Shown here in pieces: positions 1,183-51,015 of a DNA stretch of 64,000 bases. Both the position numbers and the translations under genes were made by a program. The stretch comes from an uncultured Candidatus Saccharibacteria bacterium. Lineage in GTDB: Bacteria > Patescibacteriota > Doudnabacteria > UBA920. The notes beneath the pieces are model-generated. The model saw only the letters and a program-made list of their open reading frames with translations, made no database searches and was not told the DNA's origin. The stretch is taken from positions 222,412 through 286,411 of the forward strand of contig CAZDIP010000001.1 of NCBI GenBank assembly GCA_964505635.1, given 5' to 3'. Every line of letters starts with the position of its first letter. Position 1 is the first letter of the stretch.

Positions 1183-2255
1183 GGTATCTTATTTTTTTCA
1201 CGTTAAGTTTTATTTCTTCAGCCTTACTAACCCACTGGGTCAGAAAACTGGCTTACAAATTTAATATTCTTGATCTTCCGAATGCAAACAGAAAAATCCA
1301 CAAAAAACCCATACCTTTGTTAGGAGGGTTGGGTATATTTGGATCCTTCTTTTTTATTGTATTTCTATATTTAATTTACAGTAAAGTGGATTTTTCAATT
1401 ATCCCCTTAAAATATTTTTACGGGATTTTGCTGGGGGGTGCTGTTTTAATAACCGGGGGAGCAATGGACGATAAATTTAACCTTCCCGCAAAAATCACCT
1501 GGATATTTCCAGCTCTGGCAAGCCTGATTGCCATTTATTTTGGCATAGGCGGCAATCTTACACAAATTTCTAATCCATTTGGGGGCGTGATTGATTTTAA
1601 TTTAACCCTGAACCTATTTAACTTTATAAATTTCAGTCTTGGATGGTTGGTGGTTTTTTTATGGTTAATGGGTATGATTTACACAACCAAATTCCTTGAT
1701 GGTTTAGACGGCTTAAGCAGCGGAATAAGTTTGATTGGCGGACTTACCTTGTTTGCGCTTTCATTGCTGCCGCATATCAATCAAAATATTACGGCAAGTT
1801 TAGCCATAATTTTTTGTGGAACCTTGGCAGGTTTTTTAATTTTTAACTTTCATCCAGCCTCAATTTTCTTAGGCGAAGGGGGAAGCACTTTACTGGGCTT
1901 TATTCTTGGTATACTTTCAATTATTCTAGGCGGAAAAATAGCTACCGCCCTTTTAGTAATGGGTATTCCCATACTTGATGTGGCCTGGGTTATTACAAGA
2001 CGGATTTGGTATAAAGGCAGTCCCTTTAAGGCCGACCGCAAACATTTACATTTTAGGTTACTGGATTTGGGATTTTCCCAACCTCAAGCCGTTGGAATAC
2101 TATGGTCAATATCCGGAATTTTTGGCTTTATGGCCATATTTTTACAATCTAAGGGTAAACTGATAGCTTTGGGCGGGGTTTTTGTAGTCATGCTGATTTT
2201 AGCTATTTCAGTCGTCTTGCTGTACAAACATAAGCATCCGTACATTGAAAAATAA
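1179..2255 (+). CDS. Polyprenyl-phosphate N-acetylhexosamine-1-phosphate transferase (GT4, WecA/MraY family)
   Basis: Polytopic membrane protein. MDDKFN and FLDGLDGL motifs are typical of the MraY/WecA family. Confidence 0.8.
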   Translation: MRYLIFFTLSFISSALLTHWVRKLAYKFNILDLPNANRKIHKKPIPLLGGLGIFGSFFFIVFLYLIYSKVDFSIIPLKYFYGILLGGAVLITGGAMDDKFNLPAKITWIFPALASLIAIYFGIGGNLTQISNPFGGVIDFNLTLNLFNFINFSLGWLVVFLWLMGMIYTTKFLDGLDGLSSGISLIGGLTLFALSLLPHINQNITASLAIIFCGTLAGFLIFNFHPASIFLGEGGSTLLGFILGILSIILGGKIATALLVMGIPILDVAWVITRRIWYKGSPFKADRKHLHFRLLDLGFSQPQAVGILWSISGIFGFMAIFLQSKGKLIALGGVFVVMLILAISVVLLYKHKHPYIEK

Positions 2256-2269
2256 CAATATTTATACGG

Positions 2270-2298
2270 TTGACTTAAACCTTTAAAACTGCTAAAAT
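2270..2298 (+). promoter_or_regulatory. Sigma70-type promoter upstream of rplU
   Basis: TTGACT (2270-2275), 17-nt spacer, TAAAAT (2293-2298). Confidence 0.5.
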
Positions 2299-2357
2299 AT
2301 TAAAGTTAATTATTGACTTAGGCTGTCTACAGGTTGGGCGGCATTAATTACAAAAAG

Positions 2358-2666
2358 ATGAATTTCGCTATAATTCAAACCGGCGGAAAACAATATATTG
2401 TTAAAGCTGGTGACAAAATTCAAATAGAAAAGCTTAAATTAGGCACAGGAGACAGTGTTAAATTTGACAAGGTCTTGTTTACCTTTAACGGAAAGGATGT
2501 AGAAATCGGCAAACCTTATGTTGCCGGGTCTAAAGTTGAAGGTAAAGTAATTAAGCAAGCCAGGGCAAAAAAGATCCATGTCTTAAAATACAGGGCTAAA
2601 AGCAAATATAGGCGCAAAATCGGCCAAAGACAGTATTATACAGAAGTAGAAATTACAAAAATTTAA
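2358..2666 (+). CDS. rplU: 50S ribosomal protein L21
   Basis: MNFAIIQTGGKQYIVKAGDKI is a typical L21 N-terminus. ATG at 2358 is preferred over the track TTG at 2334. Confidence 0.9.
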   Translation: MNFAIIQTGGKQYIVKAGDKIQIEKLKLGTGDSVKFDKVLFTFNGKDVEIGKPYVAGSKVEGKVIKQARAKKIHVLKYRAKSKYRRKIGQRQYYTEVEITKI

Positions 2667-2670
2667 AGTT

Positions 2671-2710
2671 TATAAACCGCCCATTACCAGGGCGGTTTAT
2701 TTTATTATTT
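2671..2710. terminator. Rho-independent terminator (bidirectional) between rplU and the convergent methyltransferase gene
   Basis: TATAAACCGCC / GGCGGTTTAT stem with a 9-nt loop, followed by a T-rich tract. Confidence 0.7.
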
Positions 2711-3354
2711 CAGAGCTTTGTAACTTCCCAAACTTCGCATCTTGGTAAAACATCAGCGACAAAATCCCATTCAGCATCTTTATAATTTAATTTTTTCGCA
2801 TTCAGCAAATCAACTCTTTTCATTTCACGTCTTAACAGCCTGACTTTATAACTTTTAGAACTTTTTAAATCATTGAGTAATTTTTTATAAGATTCCAGAC
2901 CATAAACAATTAAGTCGGTATAAATTAACATTCTGCCTCCACTTTTTAAAACCCTTAAAGCTTCTTGCAAATATTTTTTTCGCTCTGTATAAAAAACCAA
3001 TTTCGGATTTCCGCTCAGCAGTTTACGCTTTATAAAACCAGATAAATTCTTGACCAAAAGTTTTTTGCTTTCTCGATCCCATAACCAGTGCAAAGGGGCG
3101 GAAAAAAAATTTCCTACAATTATTTTATCAAATTCTCCTTGACCAAAAGGTAATTTTTTTGCATCGCAAATCTTGAAAGTACAAGAAAAAGTTTTTTTTG
3201 TATTCTTAAAATATTCCGCGATTTTTAGTTTAGCTCTAATAAGTCGCTGGTCGTTAACTTCTGCCAAAAAATATTCGTCCTCAGGTCTGAATTTAATATC
3301 ATATCTTAAAAAATACGGGTTTTCTCCGGCACCTAAGTCTAATATTTTTTCCAT
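2710..3354 (-). CDS. Class I SAM-dependent methyltransferase (substrate unknown)
   Basis: ILDLGAGEN motif I close to the N-terminus. Size fits a Rossmann-type methyltransferase. Confidence 0.5.
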   Translation of the reverse strand: MEKILDLGAGENPYFLRYDIKFRPEDEYFLAEVNDQRLIRAKLKIAEYFKNTKKTFSCTFKICDAKKLPFGQGEFDKIIVGNFFSAPLHWLWDRESKKLLVKNLSGFIKRKLLSGNPKLVFYTERKKYLQEALRVLKSGGRMLIYTDLIVYGLESYKKLLNDLKSSKSYKVRLLRREMKRVDLLNAKKLNYKDAEWDFVADVLPRCEVWEVTKL

Positions 3355-4001: not shown

Positions 4002-5381
4002 TTATTCTGCCTGGCTCGCTGCCTGCATGACTGCTTGCGGGGAAACATCAAAAGTTTTATCCAAATTTTTAAAGGAAGTTTTATCCTGTTCAAAATATAA
4101 ATCCACCTGACCCGTAGGTCCATTTCTGTGTTTTTTTACGTGAATTTCCGCAATATTAGGACGGCGGCTGTCTTTGCCTTTATACATGTCCTCGCGGTAA
4201 ATAAACATAACAACATCTGCGTCCTGTTCAATAGAGCCAGACTCACGAAGGTCGGAAAGTTGAGGTACTTTATCGGGACGGTTTTCCACCCCGCGCGACA
4301 GCTGGGAAAGCGCCAAAACAGGAACATTTAATTCACGGGCCAAAATTTTCAAACTTCGAGAAATTTCAGAGACTTCCTGGACGCGGTTGTCAGTATTATG
4401 GCCTTCCATAAGCTGCAAATAATCAACTACAATTAGCCCCACATTATGCTCCGACTGCAGACGTCTGGCTTTGGTTCTTACTTCCATTATATTACTGCCG
4501 GCTGAGTCATCTATAAAAATTGGCGCTTCTGACAATTGCCCCATGGCTTCGCCGATTTTTTCAAAATCCTCATCGTTTAAATGGCCGGTACGTATTTTCC
4601 ACAAATTAACGTCGCTCTGTGAGGATAAAAGACGATCAACCAACTGGTCTTTGCTCATTTCCAAAGAAAAAATGCCAACCGGAATTTTTAAATTTACCCC
4701 AATATGGCGCATTATATCCAAAGCCAGGCTGGTTTTGCCCATGGAAGGACGCGCAGCCAAAACTATTAAATCGGATTTTTGCATGCCGCCAAGCAAGTTG
4801 TCCATATCAATATAGCCGGTTGACACGCCCCTCAAACTGCCCTTGTCTCTATGTAGTTCGTCTATCCTTTCAAAAGTGGAATGGAGGATTGTAGAAATTG
4901 AAATGAAATTCTGTTTTAAATGCTTTTGCGAAACACCAAATAATTTTTGTTCCGCTGCATCCAAAATATTTTCCACTTCACCCTCTTCCTTATAAGCCAG
5001 GCTGCTGATTTCCCCGGCGGTTTGTATAAGCCTTCTTAAACTGCCTTTCTTTCTTACAATAAAAGCGTAATGGACGACATTATTAGCCGAGGGCACCATA
5101 TTTACCAACTGGGTCAAATAGCTGCTGCCGCCAATAGTTTCCAAAAGTTTCTTTTCTTCAAGCAGGTTCGTAACGGTTAAAATGTCTATGGGGGTATTTT
5201 TTGAAAAAAGTTCAACTGCCGTTTCGTAAATCAGCTTATGCCTATGGTCATAAAAGTCATCTGCTGAGATTACGTCGGCAATTTTTATAATTGCGTCCCT
5301 ATCTAGCATAACGCAGCCCAAAACCGACATTTCTGCTTCGTTGTTTTGAGGAGGAACTCTCTGAACTGTAGAATTATCCAT
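4002..5381 (-). CDS. dnaB: Replicative DNA helicase DnaB
   Basis: PPQNNEAEMSVLGCVMLD N-terminal signature, Walker A ARPSMGKT, RecA-like C-terminal domain. Confidence 0.95.
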   Translation of the reverse strand: MDNSTVQRVPPQNNEAEMSVLGCVMLDRDAIIKIADVISADDFYDHRHKLIYETAVELFSKNTPIDILTVTNLLEEKKLLETIGGSSYLTQLVNMVPSANNVVHYAFIVRKKGSLRRLIQTAGEISSLAYKEEGEVENILDAAEQKLFGVSQKHLKQNFISISTILHSTFERIDELHRDKGSLRGVSTGYIDMDNLLGGMQKSDLIVLAARPSMGKTSLALDIMRHIGVNLKIPVGIFSLEMSKDQLVDRLLSSQSDVNLWKIRTGHLNDEDFEKIGEAMGQLSEAPIFIDDSAGSNIMEVRTKARRLQSEHNVGLIVVDYLQLMEGHNTDNRVQEVSEISRSLKILARELNVPVLALSQLSRGVENRPDKVPQLSDLRESGSIEQDADVVMFIYREDMYKGKDSRRPNIAEIHVKKHRNGPTGQVDLYFEQDKTSFKNLDKTFDVSPQAVMQAASQAE

Positions 5382-9088: not shown

Positions 9089-9661
9089 ATGGAATTAAGT
9101 ACCATTTTTTTTATTGGTCCCCAAGGATCAGGCAAAGGCACGCAAGCGCGGGCCTTGGCAGAGCGCCTTGGGTTTTTTTATTGGGAGATGGGGGCTATTT
9201 TAAGAGCCATGCGAAACGAAAAGGGTGATTTGGCTAAGCAAGTTACAGAACTTATTGACCAAGGATTCCTACTGACCGATGACATGCTTTTGCAGGTAGT
9301 AAAACAAAAATTATCCATGATTCCAACACAAAAAGGCGTGATTTTTGACGGTATTCCAAGGCGCTTGGGCCAAGCCCAATTTTTGCTCAACGAATTAAAA
9401 AAACAGGGGAGGAAAAATTTTGTAAGTCTGTTTGTCAACTTACCAAAAAGTGAAAGTTTGAGCAGGTTGCTGCTTCGGGCTCAAAAAGAACACAGAGCGG
9501 ACGATACTAAAGAAAAAATAGAATTCCGCTTAAAGCAATACGAGAAAGACACCCTTCCAGTCTTAGATTTTTTAAAGGAAAATACTGCTTTTTTTGAAAT
9601 TGATGGCACGCCCGGTATTGAGACGGTTAAGGAAAATATTAACAAAATTTTACAATTATAA
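9089..9661 (+). CDS. adk: Adenylate kinase (short type, no zinc lid)
   Basis: P-loop GPQGSGKGTQ. adk-map order matches the end of the spc operon. Confidence 0.85.
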   Translation: MELSTIFFIGPQGSGKGTQARALAERLGFFYWEMGAILRAMRNEKGDLAKQVTELIDQGFLLTDDMLLQVVKQKLSMIPTQKGVIFDGIPRRLGQAQFLLNELKKQGRKNFVSLFVNLPKSESLSRLLLRAQKEHRADDTKEKIEFRLKQYEKDTLPVLDFLKENTAFFEIDGTPGIETVKENINKILQL

Positions 9662-9672
9662 TTTTATACCGC

Positions 9673-10287
9673 ATGCCTAAAAGCAAAACTTTAAATTTAA
9701 TTTTGTTGGGTGATCCGGCTGCGGGCAAAGCTACCCATGCCAAATATTTATGCCAGGCATTTAATATGTACGACTTGGATATGGGCAAGGAATTAAGAAA
9801 TATTAAAGACGCTAATAAAAAAAAGAGTTTGGGTTTAGACAAAACTCTAGACAAAGGAAAATTAACGCCTACGCAAGTTGTAAGAAAAATTCTGCATGAC
9901 AAAATCCATGGTACGCCAAAAACCAAAGGCATTCTTTTTGACGGGACGCCGAAAATGATAGGCGAGGCCAAGCTGGTAGTTAAGTGGCTTAAAGCAGAAC
10001 AACGGACAAAACCTCTGGTTATTTATATGTCCATTCCCATGAAAGAAACAGTCAAAAGAATGACGGAGCGCAAAGAAGACTTTAAAGGCAAATTTTCCCG
10101 CCGCGCTGACGACGATATAAAGGCTTTGCAAAATCGGGTAAAATATTACCGCGAAAATATTTCTGAAGTTGTAAAATATTTCAAAACAATATATGAATTT
10201 AAAAAAATATCTTCCAACGCCCCGGTACCAAAAGTAAGAAAAATTTTAGTGAAATTAATATCAGATCATGCCAAAAGGATTAATTAA
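9673..10287 (+). CDS. Second adenylate kinase-like NMP kinase (paralog)
   Basis: P-loop GDPAAGKAT; FDGTPK (compare FDGIPR in the first copy); RRADD LID remnant. Confidence 0.7.
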   Translation: MPKSKTLNLILLGDPAAGKATHAKYLCQAFNMYDLDMGKELRNIKDANKKKSLGLDKTLDKGKLTPTQVVRKILHDKIHGTPKTKGILFDGTPKMIGEAKLVVKWLKAEQRTKPLVIYMSIPMKETVKRMTERKEDFKGKFSRRADDDIKALQNRVKYYRENISEVVKYFKTIYEFKKISSNAPVPKVRKILVKLISDHAKRIN

Positions 10288-26296: not shown

Positions 26297-26412
26297 AAAC
26301 CCGCCAACTTTTGGTGCCGATGTAGCTCAGCTGGTAGAGCATCTCCATGGTAAGGAGAAGGTCTCCGGTTCAATCCCGGACATCGGCTCCAGAAAATTGG
26401 CGGGTTTTTGTT
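26297..26412 (+). terminator. Terminator-like helix whose loop is a whole tRNA gene
   Basis: AAACCCGCCAA (26297-26307) pairs with TTGGCGGGTTT (26397-26407), followed by a T-run. tRNA-Thr(GGT) lies between the two arms. Confidence 0.5.
26316..26391 (+). tRNA. tRNA-Thr (anticodon GGT), CCA encoded
   Basis: Manual cloverleaf: GCCGATG/CATCGGC acceptor, GCTC/GAGC D stem, TCTCC-ATGGTAA-GGAGA anticodon arm, TCCGG-TTCAATC-CCGGA T arm. Confidence 0.9.
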
Positions 26413-27006: not shown

Positions 27007-27039
27007 AAAATACCGCAATGCTTGCGGTATTTTAATTTT
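27007..27039. terminator. Rho-independent terminator (bidirectional)
   Basis: AAAATACCGCAA / TTGCGGTATTTT stem with a 3-nt loop and flanking A/T runs. Confidence 0.7.
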
Positions 27040-27123
27040 GGTGGGCGGTGCAGGACTCGAACCTGCGAAGCCGTAAGGCACCTGATTTACAGTCAGGTGT
27101 AATTGCCGCTATACGAACCGCCC
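27039..27123 (-). tRNA. tRNA-Tyr (anticodon GTA), class II long variable arm, CCA encoded
   Basis: Reverse complement folds as GGGCGGT/ACCGCCC acceptor, CCTGA-CTGTAAA-TCAGG anticodon arm, GCC-TTAC-GGC variable arm, GCAGG-TTCGAGT-CCTGC T arm. Confidence 0.9.
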
Positions 27124-27926
27124 ATACTTGTAAATTTTTTAAGTCTCTCTTCGTGTTTTTTGTTCTTAAAACCTATCTCGGTGATATATTTATTTATGTC
27201 CGATTTTCTGGTTAAGTATACACTATGTACACTAATTTTGGAAGGGCTGAAGTTTAGGTTTAAAAATGCCTGTCTAACATCCGCGAGCAGAAGTTTTGAA
27301 AGGTTGGAAAAAGAAATTTGTACCCCTTTATGCATTTTATAGACCGATCCGTCCGTATCGATTAAACCCCTTAAAACAGATTTTAAATATACTTTCCTCT
27401 TAAAAATCCAGGCAGGTATTTTAACCTGTGATTTGGTTTTATTATGAGCCATCCCTTGCCCTAAAAGCCATTTAACCGCTACTGAAGAGCCAAAATACAC
27501 AACTTGGTCGCCCCTTTTAGTGATAATTGTTTTTGGCTTTGAATTAAATACCTTTTTCATTAATTCTGAAACATGCGGGGCATACTTATCTTTTGTGCCT
27601 AACGTAACCGTGACTTGGGTTTTAGTAATATGACCGTCTCCTAAAATTATGCCTATTAATTCAGCTAAATCGCCGGAATATTTTTTTGGCAAAATAATAT
27701 TTTTATTTATATTATTATATCCGGCTTTTTTATCACGTAAAGTTTTTATATTTAGCCTAACTAATCTGTCATAAACGCTATTCTCTGCTAAGTCTAATAT
27801 TTTTGCAATCTCGTTTATGGCTTTATTTTGTTTGACATATAGAAATACAAGCTGTTGCTTGTTTTTTAAACATTCTTGTCTTGTCCATTTTCTGGCCATA
27901 TTTAGATAATATGTAAAAATTGACAT
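27093..27926 (-). CDS. Free-standing double-motif LAGLIDADG homing endonuclease with N-terminal HTH
   Basis: Two LAGLIDADG motifs (LIGIILGDGH and LRGLIDTDGS). N-terminal HTH-like INEIAKILDLAENSVYDRL. The last 31 nt overlap the 5' part of tRNA-Tyr. Confidence 0.85.
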   Translation of the reverse strand: MSIFTYYLNMARKWTRQECLKNKQQLVFLYVKQNKAINEIAKILDLAENSVYDRLVRLNIKTLRDKKAGYNNINKNIILPKKYSGDLAELIGIILGDGHITKTQVTVTLGTKDKYAPHVSELMKKVFNSKPKTIITKRGDQVVYFGSSVAVKWLLGQGMAHNKTKSQVKIPAWIFKRKVYLKSVLRGLIDTDGSVYKMHKGVQISFSNLSKLLLADVRQAFLNLNFSPSKISVHSVYLTRKSDINKYITEIGFKNKKHEERLKKFTSMGGSYSGNYT

Positions 27927-30440: not shown

Positions 30441-30469
30441 TTGATTTATATTATACTTTATGTTAAAAT
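30441..30469 (+). promoter_or_regulatory. Sigma70-type promoter of the tRNA/rpmG unit
   Basis: TTGATT (30441-30446), 17-nt spacer, TGtTAAAAT (30461-30469). Confidence 0.55.
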
Positions 30470-30566
30470 ATTCAAAGTAAGCTTTCATATTTGCCTGCAT
30501 TAGCTTCCGCCAAAGCGGACAGGCATCCGGTAGGAAAAAGGTTTTGTTCGCCCCGTCACTTTTCTG

Positions 30567-30756
30567 GCCAGCTTAGCTCATCTGGTAGAGCAACGGTTTT
30601 ACCTGCCCGCCAGTCGCCGAGTGCCGATGTAGCTCAGTTGGTAGAGCAACGGTTTTGTAAACCGTAGGTCGTCGGTTCAAACCCGACCATCGGCTCCAGG
30701 CGATCGGCAGGCGGGTAAACCGTAGGTGGCCGGTTCGAGTCCGGCAGCTGGCTCCA
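30567..30756 (+). tRNA. Interrupted Thr-type tRNA (outer gene): halves 30567-30600 and about 30715-30756, separated by an insert of about 114 nt
   Basis: GCCAGCT/AGCTGGC acceptor, GCTC/GAGC D stem, ACGGT/ACCGT anticodon stem, GCCGG-TTCGAGT-CCGGC T arm, discriminator T, CCA. All stems are perfect. The anticodon loop is split after TTT. Confidence 0.6.
30623..30698 (+). tRNA. tRNA-Thr (anticodon TGT), CCA encoded, nested inside the outer Thr-type tRNA
   Basis: GCCGATG/CATCGGC acceptor, ACGGT-TTTGTAA-ACCGT anticodon arm, GTCGG-TTCAAAC-CCGAC T arm. Confidence 0.9.
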
Positions 30757-30889
30757 CTGCTTCGTCCGCCTAAGGCGGACTACGCAGTGCAAGCACATCG
30801 TTTTAAAGGATCAAGCGATGTAAATAAGACTGCCTGACGCCCAGGCAATCTGTACTAATCACTATTCACTAACAACTAATCGCTAGAAT

Positions 30890-39636: not shown

Positions 39637-39664
39637 CGGCCTTCCGCCGGTTGGCGGAAGGCCG
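39637..39664. repeat. GC-rich 12-bp hairpin
   Basis: CGGCCTTCCGCC-GGTT-GGCGGAAGGCCG. Confidence 0.8.
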
Positions 39665-39815
39665 CGGGATGACATGTTGGCCTTGAATTACGAAACTCAA
39701 TATTGTTCGACTTTCCGCCAAAGGCGGACAGGTAAGGAGAATGATATCGAGTAATTAAGCCAAAATTTTAGATTCTCCACAAGTTCGAAAACTAAAATTT
39801 TTCTGTTTCGTGTAT

Positions 39816-41306
39816 TTAACCCCTAGGCTGACTTAAAGGCATTGGCTGGCCCGGGTCTATAACAGAGGGTTCTTTAATTAATTCTTTAATTAAAGGTACA
39901 ACAACCGAGGAGCGGTAAGAAGGAAAGTCAGTAGGTGCATCTAAAATAGGGAAGACTAAAGCCGGCACTAAAATTTCATAGCCCTCTTTACCCGGTTCAT
40001 TTTTCCACATTTTCATTAACTCTCTTTTGGGCGTGCCTAGTTTTAGTGTCGTCCCAGGCGCGGAATTTTCGTAATACGGGTAATAAATATTATTGCCGCC
40101 GGCTTCCGCGATTTTTAGAATTCTTTCCCAGTTAGTTTCAGCCGGATATTCGGAAGATTCGTAAACCTGGTTATAAAGTTCGTAAACCCCGGAAACTTTT
40201 TTTACTCTGGCATTTACGCTCACCATAAGCCCGCTTATGTTGCCTGACTGGTCGTAAGCGGTTTGGCCGTTTATAACAACCGGGTAAATAACCGTTAAGA
40301 CATCGGGTATCCAGGCTACAGATTTGTCCGGCGCAATTTGGTAATCCCTAAACCACTGTTTTTGCACCACAGATTTGCCGTAACCGCTTTTGTTAATGCC
40401 GTATTGGCTTAAGAAGCCATCGGCAATCGCAATTGTTTCTTCGTCGGAAGGTAGCTCGGAAATATTCAGTCGGTAGCGGTTATAGCAAGCTTCGTCCTGG
40501 CACATTCTGTCCGGTGTCTGCCATCTAAACCAATTTTCGTTTATATTAACACTACCTTCCTTAAAATTGAGGTTAACCATATACCCGAAATCCCTGTCCT
40601 CGGTTAAAGTCAGCATTTCTATATAAGGATTTTGCAAATTTTTAAGGTTAAATGCCGGTACAGAAAAATTCTTTACTATAGAAGCTAAATTTGGGTTTGA
40701 ACCAAAACCTTTTACGCGGCGCATAACTGCCAAATTCTCGTCCTCAAGTTCAACTTTTTCGCCCGCGTACGCAAATTTAAAATTATCGTACACCGGCAAA
40801 ATAGACATATCACCCCCGCCGCCGCTTTGCGGTCTGGCCTTTAAAGCTCCGTCAGATACGGCCGCTGTATTTTGCGCAAAACCGCCTCCGCCTCCTACGC
40901 CCCCTCCGCCCAGACCTTCACGCCCTCCGCCCGGGACTAATTCAGCCAATGAACCAAAAGCTAAAGGTTGTAATTTTGCACCTTTCTCTGCCGCGTACTC
41001 ATAACCGATATTTTTATTTTGTAAGTAGTTTACCCCGGCAATAACCGCTATAGCCAGTACGGCAAAAGCCGGTACTAAAAATTTAAAGCTAAAACGGCTG
41101 GTATTTGCCGCCCTTTCGCCAGAAAGCTGTTCGGCTTTAAGTAAAATTTTCCTGCGCAGAATTTCCGCGAAAATTGGGTCAAACTTTGTATCAGGTGCGC
41201 TTTTAAGCATTTGGCTTAACAGATCTTTTAATTCATTTTCATGTTTCATAAATTCAGAATCGTAATTATACAATTCCTGTAAGATTTGATTAACTTTCTC
41301 GTTCAT
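39816..41306 (-). CDS. Putative anti-sigma factor-like membrane protein with Gly-rich linker and large extracytoplasmic domain
   Basis: Lies downstream of the ECF sigma gene. One TM helix near residue 75 and a GGGREGLGGGGVGGGGG tract. No catalytic motif. Confidence 0.4.
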   Translation of the reverse strand: MNEKVNQILQELYNYDSEFMKHENELKDLLSQMLKSAPDTKFDPIFAEILRRKILLKAEQLSGERAANTSRFSFKFLVPAFAVLAIAVIAGVNYLQNKNIGYEYAAEKGAKLQPLAFGSLAELVPGGGREGLGGGGVGGGGGFAQNTAAVSDGALKARPQSGGGGDMSILPVYDNFKFAYAGEKVELEDENLAVMRRVKGFGSNPNLASIVKNFSVPAFNLKNLQNPYIEMLTLTEDRDFGYMVNLNFKEGSVNINENWFRWQTPDRMCQDEACYNRYRLNISELPSDEETIAIADGFLSQYGINKSGYGKSVVQKQWFRDYQIAPDKSVAWIPDVLTVIYPVVINGQTAYDQSGNISGLMVSVNARVKKVSGVYELYNQVYESSEYPAETNWERILKIAEAGGNNIYYPYYENSAPGTTLKLGTPKRELMKMWKNEPGKEGYEILVPALVFPILDAPTDFPSYRSSVVVPLIKELIKEPSVIDPGQPMPLSQPRG

Positions 41307-49816: not shown

Positions 49817-49847
49817 GCGGGAGCATATGCTCCCGCTTCTTTTTTTA
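49817..49847. terminator. Terminator shared by the small ORF and the convergent exonuclease gene
   Basis: GCGGGAGC-ATAT-GCTCCCGC stem followed by TTCTTTTTTT. Confidence 0.75.
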
Positions 49848-50399
49848 TTTCACAATCTTTCTTAAAATTTCCGCCTCAATCCTGCAGTCGGTAAGACCGT
49901 CGTGGCGGCTTTGGGACTTAATTTTAAACTTCCGCATTAAATCTTCCAAACTAAATCCGGTAAATTTTTTATTATTTTTAAGCTGGTTTTTTAAAGCCAA
50001 ATGCGCATAAAAAAACGCCCAAAGGTTAAAGTAGTGGTAATCAAACTGCCATTTTAAATTATGTTTATAGTAGGCGGCCCGTAAAAAATCCATATCCACG
50101 GGCCCGCCGTAATAGCTTAAAATTACCCGCTGGGGATTAAACTGTTTGTTAAATTCTTTTAGTACATCTTTAAGCGGGGGAGCGGCATTTAGCCATTCTT
50201 TTTTTACGCCATTTATCCGCATAGACTCCCTGTCTCTTAACTGCCATTTAAGAGGTTTTATGTAAGCATTAAAAACCGCTTTTTCGTTTAAAGTCTTTTT
50301 GTCTAAAAGCACGGCCGAAAGCTGAATTATTTCCTGCCGAAAAGAGTCCAGGCCTGTGGTTTCCAGATCTACCAGTAATAAATCTTTATAAAAATTCAT
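49845..50399 (-). CDS. DEDDh 3'-5' exonuclease (DnaQ/epsilon-like)
   Basis: ExoI VDLETTG and ExoIII HDGLTD (Hx4D). Confidence 0.8.
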   Translation of the reverse strand: MNFYKDLLLVDLETTGLDSFRQEIIQLSAVLLDKKTLNEKAVFNAYIKPLKWQLRDRESMRINGVKKEWLNAAPPLKDVLKEFNKQFNPQRVILSYYGGPVDMDFLRAAYYKHNLKWQFDYHYFNLWAFFYAHLALKNQLKNNKKFTGFSLEDLMRKFKIKSQSRHDGLTDCRIEAEILRKIVK

Positions 50400-50400
50400 A

Positions 50401-50937
50401 TCAAGCTTCTTTAATTATTTTTCTAAATATTTCGGCCTCAAGGCGCACTTTTTCCATTGCATCGTTTGGATGTTTTTGCTTTAAATTAAAATGGTCTAAA
50501 AATGTATTAAAGGTAGGCATTTTTTTTAAACCGTAATTTAATGTGTAAATATACCCCAAGGTCCATAGCTCTATAACATGGGAACCATAGTCAAACGGCA
50601 CCAAGGCTTTTTTAAATGCGGCCTTTAAAAACAAGATATTGGCCACATTATGGGTTGCCAATAAAAAATTACTGCCCAATTTATTGTGAAATTGTTTTAC
50701 TACATCGTAGACTTTTGCGCTTTTTTTTAAAACATTATATTCAATTCCAAGCAATTTGGAATGCTGATTTATAACGGCATCCAAATAACTTACTCGCACA
50801 AACGAATTGAAGTTGGCCTTTTCCAAAAGATTGTCTTTATCAAGCAGAACTGCTGAAAGCTGGATAACCGAATCCTTATCGGTGTCCTGTCCGGTTGTGG
50901 TAACTTCAAAAAATAATAGATCTTTAATAAATTTCAT
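50401..50937 (-). CDS. DnaQ-like exonuclease paralog with degenerate catalytic motifs
   Basis: Same length and N-terminus (MKFIKDLLFF vs MNFYKDLLLV). ExoI is FFEVTTTG (first Asp lost) and ExoIII is HPNDAM (no Hx4D). ATG at 50937 preferred. Confidence 0.6.
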   Translation of the reverse strand: MKFIKDLLFFEVTTTGQDTDKDSVIQLSAVLLDKDNLLEKANFNSFVRVSYLDAVINQHSKLLGIEYNVLKKSAKVYDVVKQFHNKLGSNFLLATHNVANILFLKAAFKKALVPFDYGSHVIELWTLGYIYTLNYGLKKMPTFNTFLDHFNLKQKHPNDAMEKVRLEAEIFRKIIKEA

Positions 50938-51015
50938 AAGCAGTAATCTCAAATATACAAATCTTTCCAAATATACAAATTTAAATGCATTGCCTGATTT
51001 GTATATTTGCGAACA

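Follow-up and report, generated by a model that had tools for sequence, protein, structure and literature searches.

Why should a complete transfer RNA (tRNA) gene lie inside the anticodon loop of another, and which of the two would then be in use? The question is raised by a 64,000-nucleotide (64-kb) stretch of contig CAZDIP010000001.1 from an uncultured Candidatus Saccharibacteria bacterium (assembly GCA_964505635.1), here called the window, in which a complete tRNA-Thr(UGU) gene (30623-30698), standing on a GC-rich rod of 17-18 bp, splits a second tRNA-Thr gene (30567-30756). Loci retrieved from elsewhere are labelled L plus a number (for example, L034 or L202). We favour, at a probability of about two in three, a recent DNA-level insertion of a tRNA-carrying cassette, with the inner gene replacing an outer gene that is now a relic. 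The nest in the window is one member of a widespread, apparently undescribed cassette family that makes Russian-doll tRNA loci in Patescibacteria.

Structure of the nested locus

An initial annotation, made from the letters of the window, had described two outer halves (30567-30600 and 30717-30756), two rod strands, a GAGT spacer and an inner tRNA, and extraction of the segments recovered every one of them at its position. In silico removal of 30601-30714 yields a 76-nt tRNA-Thr(tgt) in ARAGORN with 21 of 21 stem pairs Watson-Crick, the number that had been claimed, and the pairing given for the rod (30601-30618 with 30699-30716; 14 Watson-Crick, 2 G.U and 2 A/C positions) was reproduced. From the native sequence, ARAGORN and Rfam each detect the inner tRNA alone, and Rfam at relaxed thresholds returns the inner tRNA and nothing else. 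RNAfold arranges the 190-nt region as an outer cloverleaf, the rod and an inner cloverleaf (-98.4 kcal/mol, z = -7.3), a stability matched by 0 of 200 shuffles, and a pair of D-arms at the 38-nt distance seen here occurs 0 times in 100 shuffles of the window. The insert of 114 nt comprises 76 nt of tRNA and 38 nt of rod plus spacer; inner and outer genes have identical stretches of 18 nt and 11 nt in common, and both the rod (≤3 mismatches) and the motif CCYGCCYGCC are present in the window in one copy.

A family of tRNA-carrying cassettes in Patescibacteria

Species-representative genomes were scanned for pairs of D-arms (TAGCTCAnnnGGnAGAGC-N25-50-TAGCTCAnnnGGnAGAGC), a signature chosen because tandem tRNAs cannot put two D-arms within ~55 nt of each other, and at least 119 loci were obtained. 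Among the matches listed, the nested architecture is present in at least ~21 metagenome-assembled genomes (MAGs), nearly all from the Candidate Phyla Radiation (CPR; Kerfeld-, Doudna-, Parcu-, Moranii-, Sacchari- and Dojkabacteria or 'Patescibacteria group'), with a few bearing the automated labels Pseudomonadales or Gammaproteobacteria. A metagenome scan, for the 17-mer of the window's 5' rod strand (r2) and then for a D-arm, returned 45 loci (36 distinct), all of them genuine cassettes, which brings the total from the structural DNA signature and the rod-specific pattern to at least ~58 distinct nests, nearly all in Patescibacteria. The r2 17-mer (CCTGCCCGCCAGTCGCC) is invariant in the window, in Kerfeldbacteria L038 and in Doudnabacteria L034; in viral contigs the bare 17-mer gave six chance matches in GC-rich coding sequence, none with a tRNA. 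The majority of nests are Thr-in-Thr, and Val(CAC)-in-Val(CAC) (L116), Val(UAC)-in-Val(UAC) (L086) and Ala(GGC)-in-Ala(GGC) (L095) are also found. Since the architecture is repeated in ~58 independent assemblies, misassembly is very unlikely.

The 24 r2 cassettes that were parsed are built in four parts, 5'-CCTGCCCGCC-AGT-CGCC, a variable spacer of 2-4 nt, a tRNA-Thr ending in CCA and, straight after the CCA, GGCG-N3-4-GGCAGGCGGG-3', so that the cassette ends (5'-CCTGCCCGCC…GGCAGGCGGG-3') are conserved across the family, and the outer 10 bp of the rod always hold one U.G and one C.A position. The window nest has all of these features, as well as a tRNA-Thr host of the same anticodon, and shares them with the 45 metagenome loci, L038 and L034. 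A second class, CCCGCCTGCC…CGGGCAGG (L103, L104, L135 and L145), is by inspection the same palindrome reversed relative to its cargo, and further rod families read CGCCCCGTCAC…GTGACGGGG and ACCCCNACACC…GGTGTNGGGG. Between nests, the rods show no sequence relationship (31% identity), and the pairing of a leader with its own trailer is the best or near-best (-22.5 versus -14.9 kcal/mol); what is conserved in rods across nests is the helix. Strong leader-trailer rods are found on the nest tRNAs (Thr, Val and Ala) and not on Trp, Tyr or Gly, and this limitation led us to reject the rod as a universal pre-tRNA processing stem of the lineage.

The r2 cassettes occupy two sites, between G35 and U36 of the anticodon loop (…TTTG|…|TAA…) and between A23 and G24 of the D-stem (…GGTAGA|…|GC…), with the same borders at both, and their excision is exact, with no target duplication or loss. 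A cassette is also found in a T-loop remnant (L093), double and triple nests combine both sites (L034, L045, L185 and L157), and L160 and L070 hold cargo-less, hairpin-only copies of the same palindrome.

These borders bear on the outer anticodon in the window. Other anticodon-loop cassettes with the r2 rod read ...TTTG|CCTGCCC...GGCGGG|TAA..., and the window reads ...TTTA|CCTGCCC. With the family borders, the insert runs from 30602 to 30715 and the outer loop is TTTATAA with anticodon TAT, called Ile(tat) by ARAGORN; outer position 35 is A in the window versus G in all intact orthologues, and G35 is an identity element for ThrRS. Given these borders, the outer anticodon would be UAU and not UGU. 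The loop TTTGTAA with UGU that had been proposed from the window borrows its G from the rod end, and the TAT noted beside it as an alternative is the reading that these borders give.

With the family borders, all on the forward strand, the nest opens with positions 1-35 of the outer tRNA-Thr 'A' (30567-30601; acceptor 5' strand, D-arm, anticodon-stem 5' strand, TTT and A), of which 1-34 are identical to the uninterrupted A of the relatives L140 and L093. The cassette follows with r2 (30602-30618), a 17-mer found identical in L038, L034 and the 45 metagenome loci and each time succeeded by a tRNA-Thr, and with the 4-nt spacer GAGT (30619-30622), which leads to the inner 5' end opposite the discriminator plus CCA and has a counterpart of 2-4 variable nt in all r2 cassettes. 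Next comes the intact inner tRNA-Thr(UGU) 'B' with encoded CCA (30623-30698; ARAGORN; Rfam RF00005, 76.7 bits), presumed to be the functional gene. Directly after its CCA, the 3' rod strand r2' GGCGATCGGCAGGCGGG (30699-30715; consensus GGCG-N3-4-GGCAGGCGGG in the 24 parsed cassettes) pairs with r2, and positions 36-76 of A (30716-30756; TAA, anticodon-stem 3' strand, variable loop, T-arm, acceptor 3' strand, U73 and CCA), 100% identical to the uninterrupted A of L140 and L093, close the nest.

Uninterrupted orthologues and the history of the locus

A comparison with relatives had been named beforehand as a refuting test. Synteny with the window (AhcY, rpmG, tRNA-Trp and ABC transporter) extends to L140 and L093, at ~70-75% nucleotide identity, and the closer relatives L202, L204 and L206 were retrieved through AhcY; AhcY identities across the five are 91, 83, 83, 80 and 70%, with L202 at 91% and L204 and L206 at 83%. 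At the orthologous position all five carry an uninterrupted A-type tRNA-Thr(UGU), and the upstream promoter sequence is common to L202. The insert is therefore specific to the lineage of the window, and the flawless outer cloverleaf argues that the insertion is recent; on this point we agree with the initial annotation, which had cited the same cloverleaf against old pseudogenization. Of the three explanations that it proposed, the five uninterrupted relatives support the one in which a tRNA cassette flanked by a hairpin was recently inserted at the DNA level and inactivated the outer gene.

The relatives also hold an earlier layer. An older cassette, with rod r1, carries A as its cargo in L140 and L093, where it lies within a decayed B-like outer gene and its 5' rod strand C[TC]CGCCCCGTCACCCATA pairs with TGGGTGACGGGG downstream of the tRNA. 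The window keeps a decayed 5' half and an r1 strand at 30527-30559: positions 30527-30546 (+; CCGGTAGGAAAAAGGTTTTG) come from the D-arm and the anticodon stem and loop of an earlier tRNA-Thr, the outermost at the locus, and align to the intact …TGGTAGAGCAACGGTTTTG that precedes the same tRNA in L140 and L093, and 30547-30559 (+), homologous to C[TC]CGCCCCGTCACCCATA, is what is left of the 5' strand r1 (TTCGCCCCGTCAC) of the older cassette whose cargo was the present outer tRNA. This remnant, together with the L140/L093 nest, argues that B was replaced by A and then A by a new B; an analogous reciprocal swap is seen in the Doudnabacteria pair L035/L045. The A allele and r1 remnant of the window resemble those of the distant L140 and L093 and not those of the closest relative, L202, whose A allele has two compensatory pairs different from the window's, and this pattern suggests that the small nest region was swapped by recombinational exchange. 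Beyond the reach of the initial annotation lay the large family with its conserved termini, the former life of the outer gene as an inner gene and, under the family borders, the mutation of its anticodon from G35 to A.

Fate of the outer genes

Inner and outer genes fare differently across the family. ARAGORN calls the inner tRNA in 35 of the 35 loci whose cargo is not itself interrupted, and it rebuilds the outer tRNA in 15 of 39 distinct r2 loci, several with mismatches, the other 24 being beyond reconstruction. Over nine pairs of loci with near-identical cassettes, inner tRNAs differ at 41 of 680 positions (6%) and outer halves at 275 of 684 (40%); outer halves appear to evolve, or to be exchanged, far faster than the cargo. 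In L153 the inner sequence has overwritten the 5' strand of the outer T-stem by gene conversion, with loss of pairing, and hairpin-only inserts gather in outer genes that are already interrupted (L152, L154, L179, L191, L093 and L140). The outer gene in the window has orthologues intact in five relatives, and equivalent outer copies elsewhere are decayed, as for a pseudogene. The evidence points to outer genes in general no longer being used.

The anticodons of inner and outer genes are the same in every readable nest (10 D-stem nests, more than 25 anticodon-loop nests, Val(CAC), Val(TAC) and Ala(GGC)); for the ten D-stem nests, chance matching among the three Thr isoacceptors has a probability of roughly (1/3)^10 if the events are independent. 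Such matching is what purifying selection would leave if an insertion kills its target, whereas splicing would permit mismatched nests, of which none was seen. In L155, L163 and L173, the inner and outer genes differ by compensatory pairs, which argues that they were distinct functional genes; a local duplication of the target was rejected for this reason.

Within three D-stem-interrupted outer tRNA-Thr genes (L152, L154 and L179/L184), the anticodon is replaced by a conserved mini-element of ~24 nt, T-CCGCC-NNN-GGCGG-A-TAAA(C/G)TCCA, which is a second, cargo-less element aimed at the same anticodon loop. Just downstream of the window nest lies a GC-rich predicted hairpin (CTGCTTCGTCCGCCTAAGGCGGACTACGCAG; 30757-30787, +) of a small TCCGCC…GGCGGA family that is also present in other nests; the same element (CTTCGTCCGCCTCAGGCGGACTAC) sits inside a T-loop remnant in L034. 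Besides the sites at 30506-30519 and 30764-30780, some 20 further TCCGCC or GGCGGA sites are spread over the window (for example, 39643-39653, 39714-39723 and 40887-40926), so that GC-rich TCCGCC-N3-GGCGGA hairpins recur in an AT-rich genome as a family resembling repetitive extragenic palindromic (REP) sequences, and related copies lie inside T-loops and anticodon loops of dead outer tRNAs (L034, L191 and L093).

Proposed mechanism

Under insertion and replacement, a non-coding cassette (CCTGCCCGCCAGTCGCC, a 4-nt spacer, tRNA-Thr(UGU) 'B' with its CCA and GGCG-N3-GGCAGGCGGG) would have entered the anticodon loop of a resident tRNA-Thr(UGU) 'A'. The whole unit would probably still be transcribed from the old promoter: a promoter-like site at 30441-30469 (+; TTGATT-17-TAAAAT with TG), upstream of the whole nest and with …TGTTAAAATATTCAAAGT also preceding the uninterrupted L202 orthologue, probably drives the composite transcript. 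The paired rod strands would form a leader-trailer stem beside the acceptor stem, with a 4x4 internal loop in which the spacer faces NCCA; RNase P would cut at the 5' end of the inner tRNA, an exonuclease or endonuclease would trim to the encoded CCA, and B would become the working tRNA, leaving the unjoined halves of A as by-products of a relic bound to decay. If an insertion is tolerated only with cargo of the same anticodon as the gene destroyed, this would be the reason that inner and outer anticodons always match. The family would thus repeatedly invade tRNA-Thr genes (rarely Val or Ala) at two sites and build stacks in which the innermost gene alone is intact.

Two routes of movement may be considered, namely homologous recombination or gene conversion, with the highly conserved tRNA halves as homology arms and imported DNA of relatives among the possible partners, and a trans-acting, structure-specific recombinase or nuclease. 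We favour insertion by recombination or gene conversion on tRNA-half homology arms, perhaps begun at a break from a nuclease acting in trans, and consider structure-specific transposition of the cassette possible. A GIY-YIG-like open reading frame (ORF), present at 4 loci, and the LAGLIDADG ORF of the window are neither of them consistently linked to nests. Other schemes were rejected: with a mariner/Stowaway-like duplication of a TA target, the loop would come down to 5 nt; the cargos of L085, L103, L135 and L145 lack CCA, unlike a retro-copy of mature tRNA; and the flanks differ among D-stem, Thr-loop and Val-loop sites, unlike an IS608-like TTAC target.

Several observations weigh against insertion with replacement. 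Decay of outer genes is compatible with splicing, because the inner gene makes the outer one redundant, and that outer genes are not spliced is itself inferred from sequence. The 15 of 39 outer genes mentioned above can still be rebuilt, and the one in the window is at most one position off its intact orthologues, an intactness that recency would explain and that continued selection would explain equally. Clustering of 548 ORFs from nest loci revealed housekeeping neighbours alone, with no consistent recombinase, nuclease or ligase, and the 48 ORFs of the 64-kb window gave no recombinase, nuclease or ligase candidate against Pfam. The rod motif is present once in 64 kb, unlike a typical high-copy miniature inverted-repeat transposable element (MITE). 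One rod family (L035, L045 and L085) has a GTAA(ACC) direct repeat at both junctions and r2 has none, a contrast that may mean that more than one mechanism is involved, and the account gives no reason why one rod type should come with cargo fitted to Thr, Val or Ala targets.

Alternative explanations

The initial annotation had also proposed a new, spliced intervening sequence. Cleavage by RNase P and processing at the 3' end would free the inner tRNA, a structure-specific activity would cut the rod at its base and a ligase (for example, RtcB or Rnl-type) would join the outer exons, so that one gene gives two tRNAs and the cassettes would be mobile, 'introner-like' introns, harmless once spliced; this would be a third kind of bacterial intervening sequence. 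Consistent with it, once CCTGCCC...GGCGGG is taken out, L163, L169, L173 and L181 regain a faultless D-stem or an anticodon loop of 7 nt, the termini and the internal-loop 'AGU' are conserved above the cargo, as for a recognition element, the outer cloverleaf of the window is flawless, and there are several insertion positions, as in archaeal non-canonical tRNA introns, which occupy multiple positions. We nevertheless consider splicing unlikely, because the geometry of a bulge-helix-bulge (BHB) and a group I core are absent, the majority of outer genes are decayed, the L153 outer gene having been destroyed by gene conversion, outer sequences change fast, the readable nests include none with mismatched anticodons although splicing would make these viable, the family borders put UAU on a Thr body in the window and C33 in the outer gene of L038, and 5 of 5 relatives lack the insert. 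The 64-kb window has no RtcB, RNase III or EndA gene, which is weak evidence, and we know of no bacterial enzyme that cuts the base of such a helix and religates. A two-piece outer tRNA, whose halves stay annealed through the rod and act unligated as a tRNA or tRNA-like RNA, had been put forward as well; pairing in the rod and in the acceptor stem would keep the halves in contact, and D-stem nests keep the anticodon arm, T-arm and CCA end on one piece. The break in the window falls within the anticodon loop and leaves no continuous anticodon, D-stem nests decay equally often and, to our knowledge, a two-piece tRNA of this kind is without precedent; the proposal finds no support for an anticodon-loop break and is very improbable.

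It could also be that there is no discrete mobile element, and that nests are made and turned over by recombination, gene conversion and deletion among paralogous tRNA-Thr units with leader-trailer stems. Conversion between inner and outer genes is visible (L153, and near-identical inner and outer genes in L038, L155 and L194), L045 is explained by a deletion between homologous rods, the A allele and r1 remnant of the window fit L140/L093 and not L202, no enzyme gene is associated with nests, and a stand-alone tRNA-Thr(GGU) at 26316 has a similar rod. Against this, recombination between direct or inverted repeats cannot alone make a first nest, the same cassette with identical ends is present in different outer genes and at two sites, and lineages of Kerfeld-, Doudna- and other CPR bacteria share an unvarying 17-nt rod strand but differ in its cargo, which looks like constraint or spread; we regard this account as doubtful. 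An assembly chimera, from collapse of two similar tRNA-Thr genes, would fit the identical stretches of 18 nt and 11 nt and the break of a Logan contig of the same organism at ~30501, just upstream of the nest. It is hardly credible, because nests with covarying rods recur in ~58 assemblies made independently, by different projects and with different assemblers, an 857-kb contig among them, and because the window has no second rod copy to build from; the possibility of a chimera, raised at the outset, can be set aside as very unlikely.

Relation to known systems

That the insert is neither a group I or II intron nor a BHB intron, as initially stated, is borne out by Rfam and by the fold. The group I model RF00028 gave no match at the gathering threshold, and none over 30450-30880 when filters were relaxed and E ≤ 5 was allowed. 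Group I introns in bacterial tRNA genes measure 184-894 nt, and a 2026 survey of tRNA introns in Patescibacteria reported group I introns alone, group I and II introns being the only ones known in bacteria (PMC13011429). Those introns are like the nest in phylum, in position (33/34 to 36/37), in having tRNA-Thr among their hosts and in being missed by standard tRNA finders, but they have a catalytic core (PMC13011429), whereas the nest insert has 114 nt, no core and no Rfam intron match. The intron mode of ARAGORN called no outer gene and no hairpin-only 'introns' in intact tRNAs; the sole introns that it called were two of group I size in tRNA-Ser. Such an intron, of 194-200 nt, lies at 34/35 of tRNA-Ser(UGA) in two relatives of the window (L093 7682-7968 and L203 2351-2631, both on the reverse strand; …GACTAGATACCG…GATATAGTCC…), whose size and motifs suggest group I and which is absent from the window.

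Archaeal BHB introns and split or permuted tRNAs (Nanoarchaeum, Caldivirga, Thermoproteales and Cyanidioschyzon) resemble the nest in an insert in the anticodon loop or D-arm, GC-rich complementary flanks, several sites and evidence of mobility. In the nest, the minimum free energy and centroid structures both show a continuous helix from anticodon stem to rod, with one bulged U and isolated mismatches, and the junctions of D-stem members offer, by inspection, no BHB-type exon-intron pairing; its halves are in normal order, 114 nt apart, behind one promoter-like site, unlike a split or permuted gene. It further differs from these systems in its bacterial host, the complete tRNA in the insert, mostly decayed outer genes and the lack of an identified endonuclease/ligase system; EndA and RtcB had no match among the 48 window ORFs (64 kb of genome) scanned against Pfam.

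With MITE, REP, REPIN and Correia elements the cassette shares a short, non-coding make-up, imperfect terminal inverted repeats (17-18 bp, enclosing no ORF and a tRNA as cargo), a long hairpin, hairpin-only copies (L160 and L070) and a palindrome that can face either way in its surroundings (CCTGCCCGCC… versus CCCGCCTGCC…). It departs from them in the r2 cassettes' lack of a target-site duplication, its one copy in 64 kb, its restriction to tRNA genes, its functional-tRNA cargo and the lack of an identified partner transposase. Closest in logic are the integrative islands and prophages that target tRNA genes, and an archaeal model has a mobile element disrupting tRNA-Thr, with tRNA-Thr(GGU) in Caldiarchaeum as the example (PMC3293823). 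Both aim at a tRNA gene, often in the anticodon or T-loop, bring tRNA sequence that saves function, leave orphan fragments and show population-level heterogeneity at tRNA-Thr. Unlike islands, the cassette has ~114 bp, neither an integrase nor a consistent nearby recombinase, a whole tRNA instead of a 3' segment and, in the r2 family, no att-type direct repeats; the old gene is replaced and not restored, and events stack. Bacterial rRNA intervening sequences excised by RNase III are likewise helix-forming inserts in stable RNA genes, the RNA probably being cut and its pieces left unjoined, but a fragmented rRNA works and a tRNA cut in the anticodon loop cannot, so that function comes from the cargo of the cassette. 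A full-text literature search found no description of tRNA-in-tRNA nests in bacteria.

If insertion and replacement is the true account, CPR bacteria carry an unrecognized type of element, a hairpin-ended cassette of ~115 bp with a tRNA gene as sole cargo, which substitutes for a gene of the same isoacceptor and drives a continual 'leapfrog' turnover of tRNA-Thr that leaves Russian-doll loci. Such an element would give the long debate on how tRNA genes of Archaea came to be disrupted a concrete parallel in bacteria, and it suggests that extreme conservation of tRNA sequence can provide portable homology arms for gene exchange; the conserved rod termini point to a processing or recombination factor. 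Should splicing prove true, Bacteria would have a new, protein-dependent tRNA splicing pathway acting at D-stem and anticodon-loop sites. In practice, standard tRNA finders detect the innermost gene only, fragments may be mis-annotated and assemblies tend to break at nests.

Other features of the window and of retrieved loci

The window encodes rpsB, tsf, rpmG, ThrRS, pilin-like proteins and a LAGLIDADG ORF, a gene content characteristic of Patescibacteria (CPR) with small genomes, and the best AhcY homologues are labelled Doudnabacteria or Patescibacteria. A flanking protein of 346 aa is an ORFan that matched itself alone, its one other contig stopping short of the nest, and exact-sequence look-ups of the L33 and HAD proteins returned no match. 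The stand-alone tRNA-Thr(GGU) at 26316-26391 is enclosed by a perfect 11-bp leader-trailer helix of C-rich/G-rich style (AAACCCGCCAA, 26297-26307; TTGGCGGGTTT, 26397-26407) within AT-rich flanks devoid of an outer tRNA remnant, and may represent a donor form or else a cassette that has lost its outer gene. The free-standing LAGLIDADG-type ORF (27093-27926, reverse strand; Pfam LAGLIDADG_3, E = 1.8e-12) ends in the 5' part of a tRNA-Tyr gene (27039-27123, reverse strand), 3.5 kb from the nest and without a shown link to the cassette. Adjacent paralogues of adenylate kinase (9089-9661 and 9673-10287) and adjacent DEDD exonuclease genes of the RNase T family (49845-50399 and 50401-50970), candidate enzymes for trimming pre-tRNA 3' ends, are also present. 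In the relative L204, a 570-aa large serine recombinase (1351-3063; Resolvase and Zn_ribbon_recom) abuts tRNA-Trp near rpmG and probably belongs to a separate element integrated at that tRNA.

The scans also returned tRNA arrangements of other kinds. In L126, a complete Roizmanbacteria chromosome (CP066689.1), an entire tRNA(UUU) at ~1710-1860 separates the 5' part of another tRNA-like gene from its 3' part (T-arm and complementary acceptor strand), with no obvious rod; this closed genome may hold a nest of another type. Two Bacteroidota MAGs (L074 842-1730 and L124 ~720-1400) have at least seven tandem truncated tRNA 5' fragments (acceptor strand, D-arm and short hairpin) upstream of a complete tRNA, with a period of ~134 nt in L074 and ~66 nt in L124; these arrays are unrelated to the CPR nests. 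In ~20 of 23 distinct phage loci (IMG/VR contigs L002-L031; for example, L018 ~1040-1170, L009 ~5150-5250, L003, L004, L006, L011, L016 and L023), a tRNA 3' half, which extends from the 3' part of the anticodon loop to and including the 3' acceptor strand, comes first and its matching 5' half 0-12 nt later, and ARAGORN, a tolerant caller, reports a tRNA only after in silico un-permuting. Rfam detected no group I intron in these phage loci, and a full-text literature search yielded no report of them. The sequences flanking them are complementary to each other (for example, TAGTGGC/GCCACTA), a motif resembling ACAGCAA is found repeatedly upstream, and the junctions are approximate; the loci may be circularly permuted tRNA genes within phage tRNA arrays.

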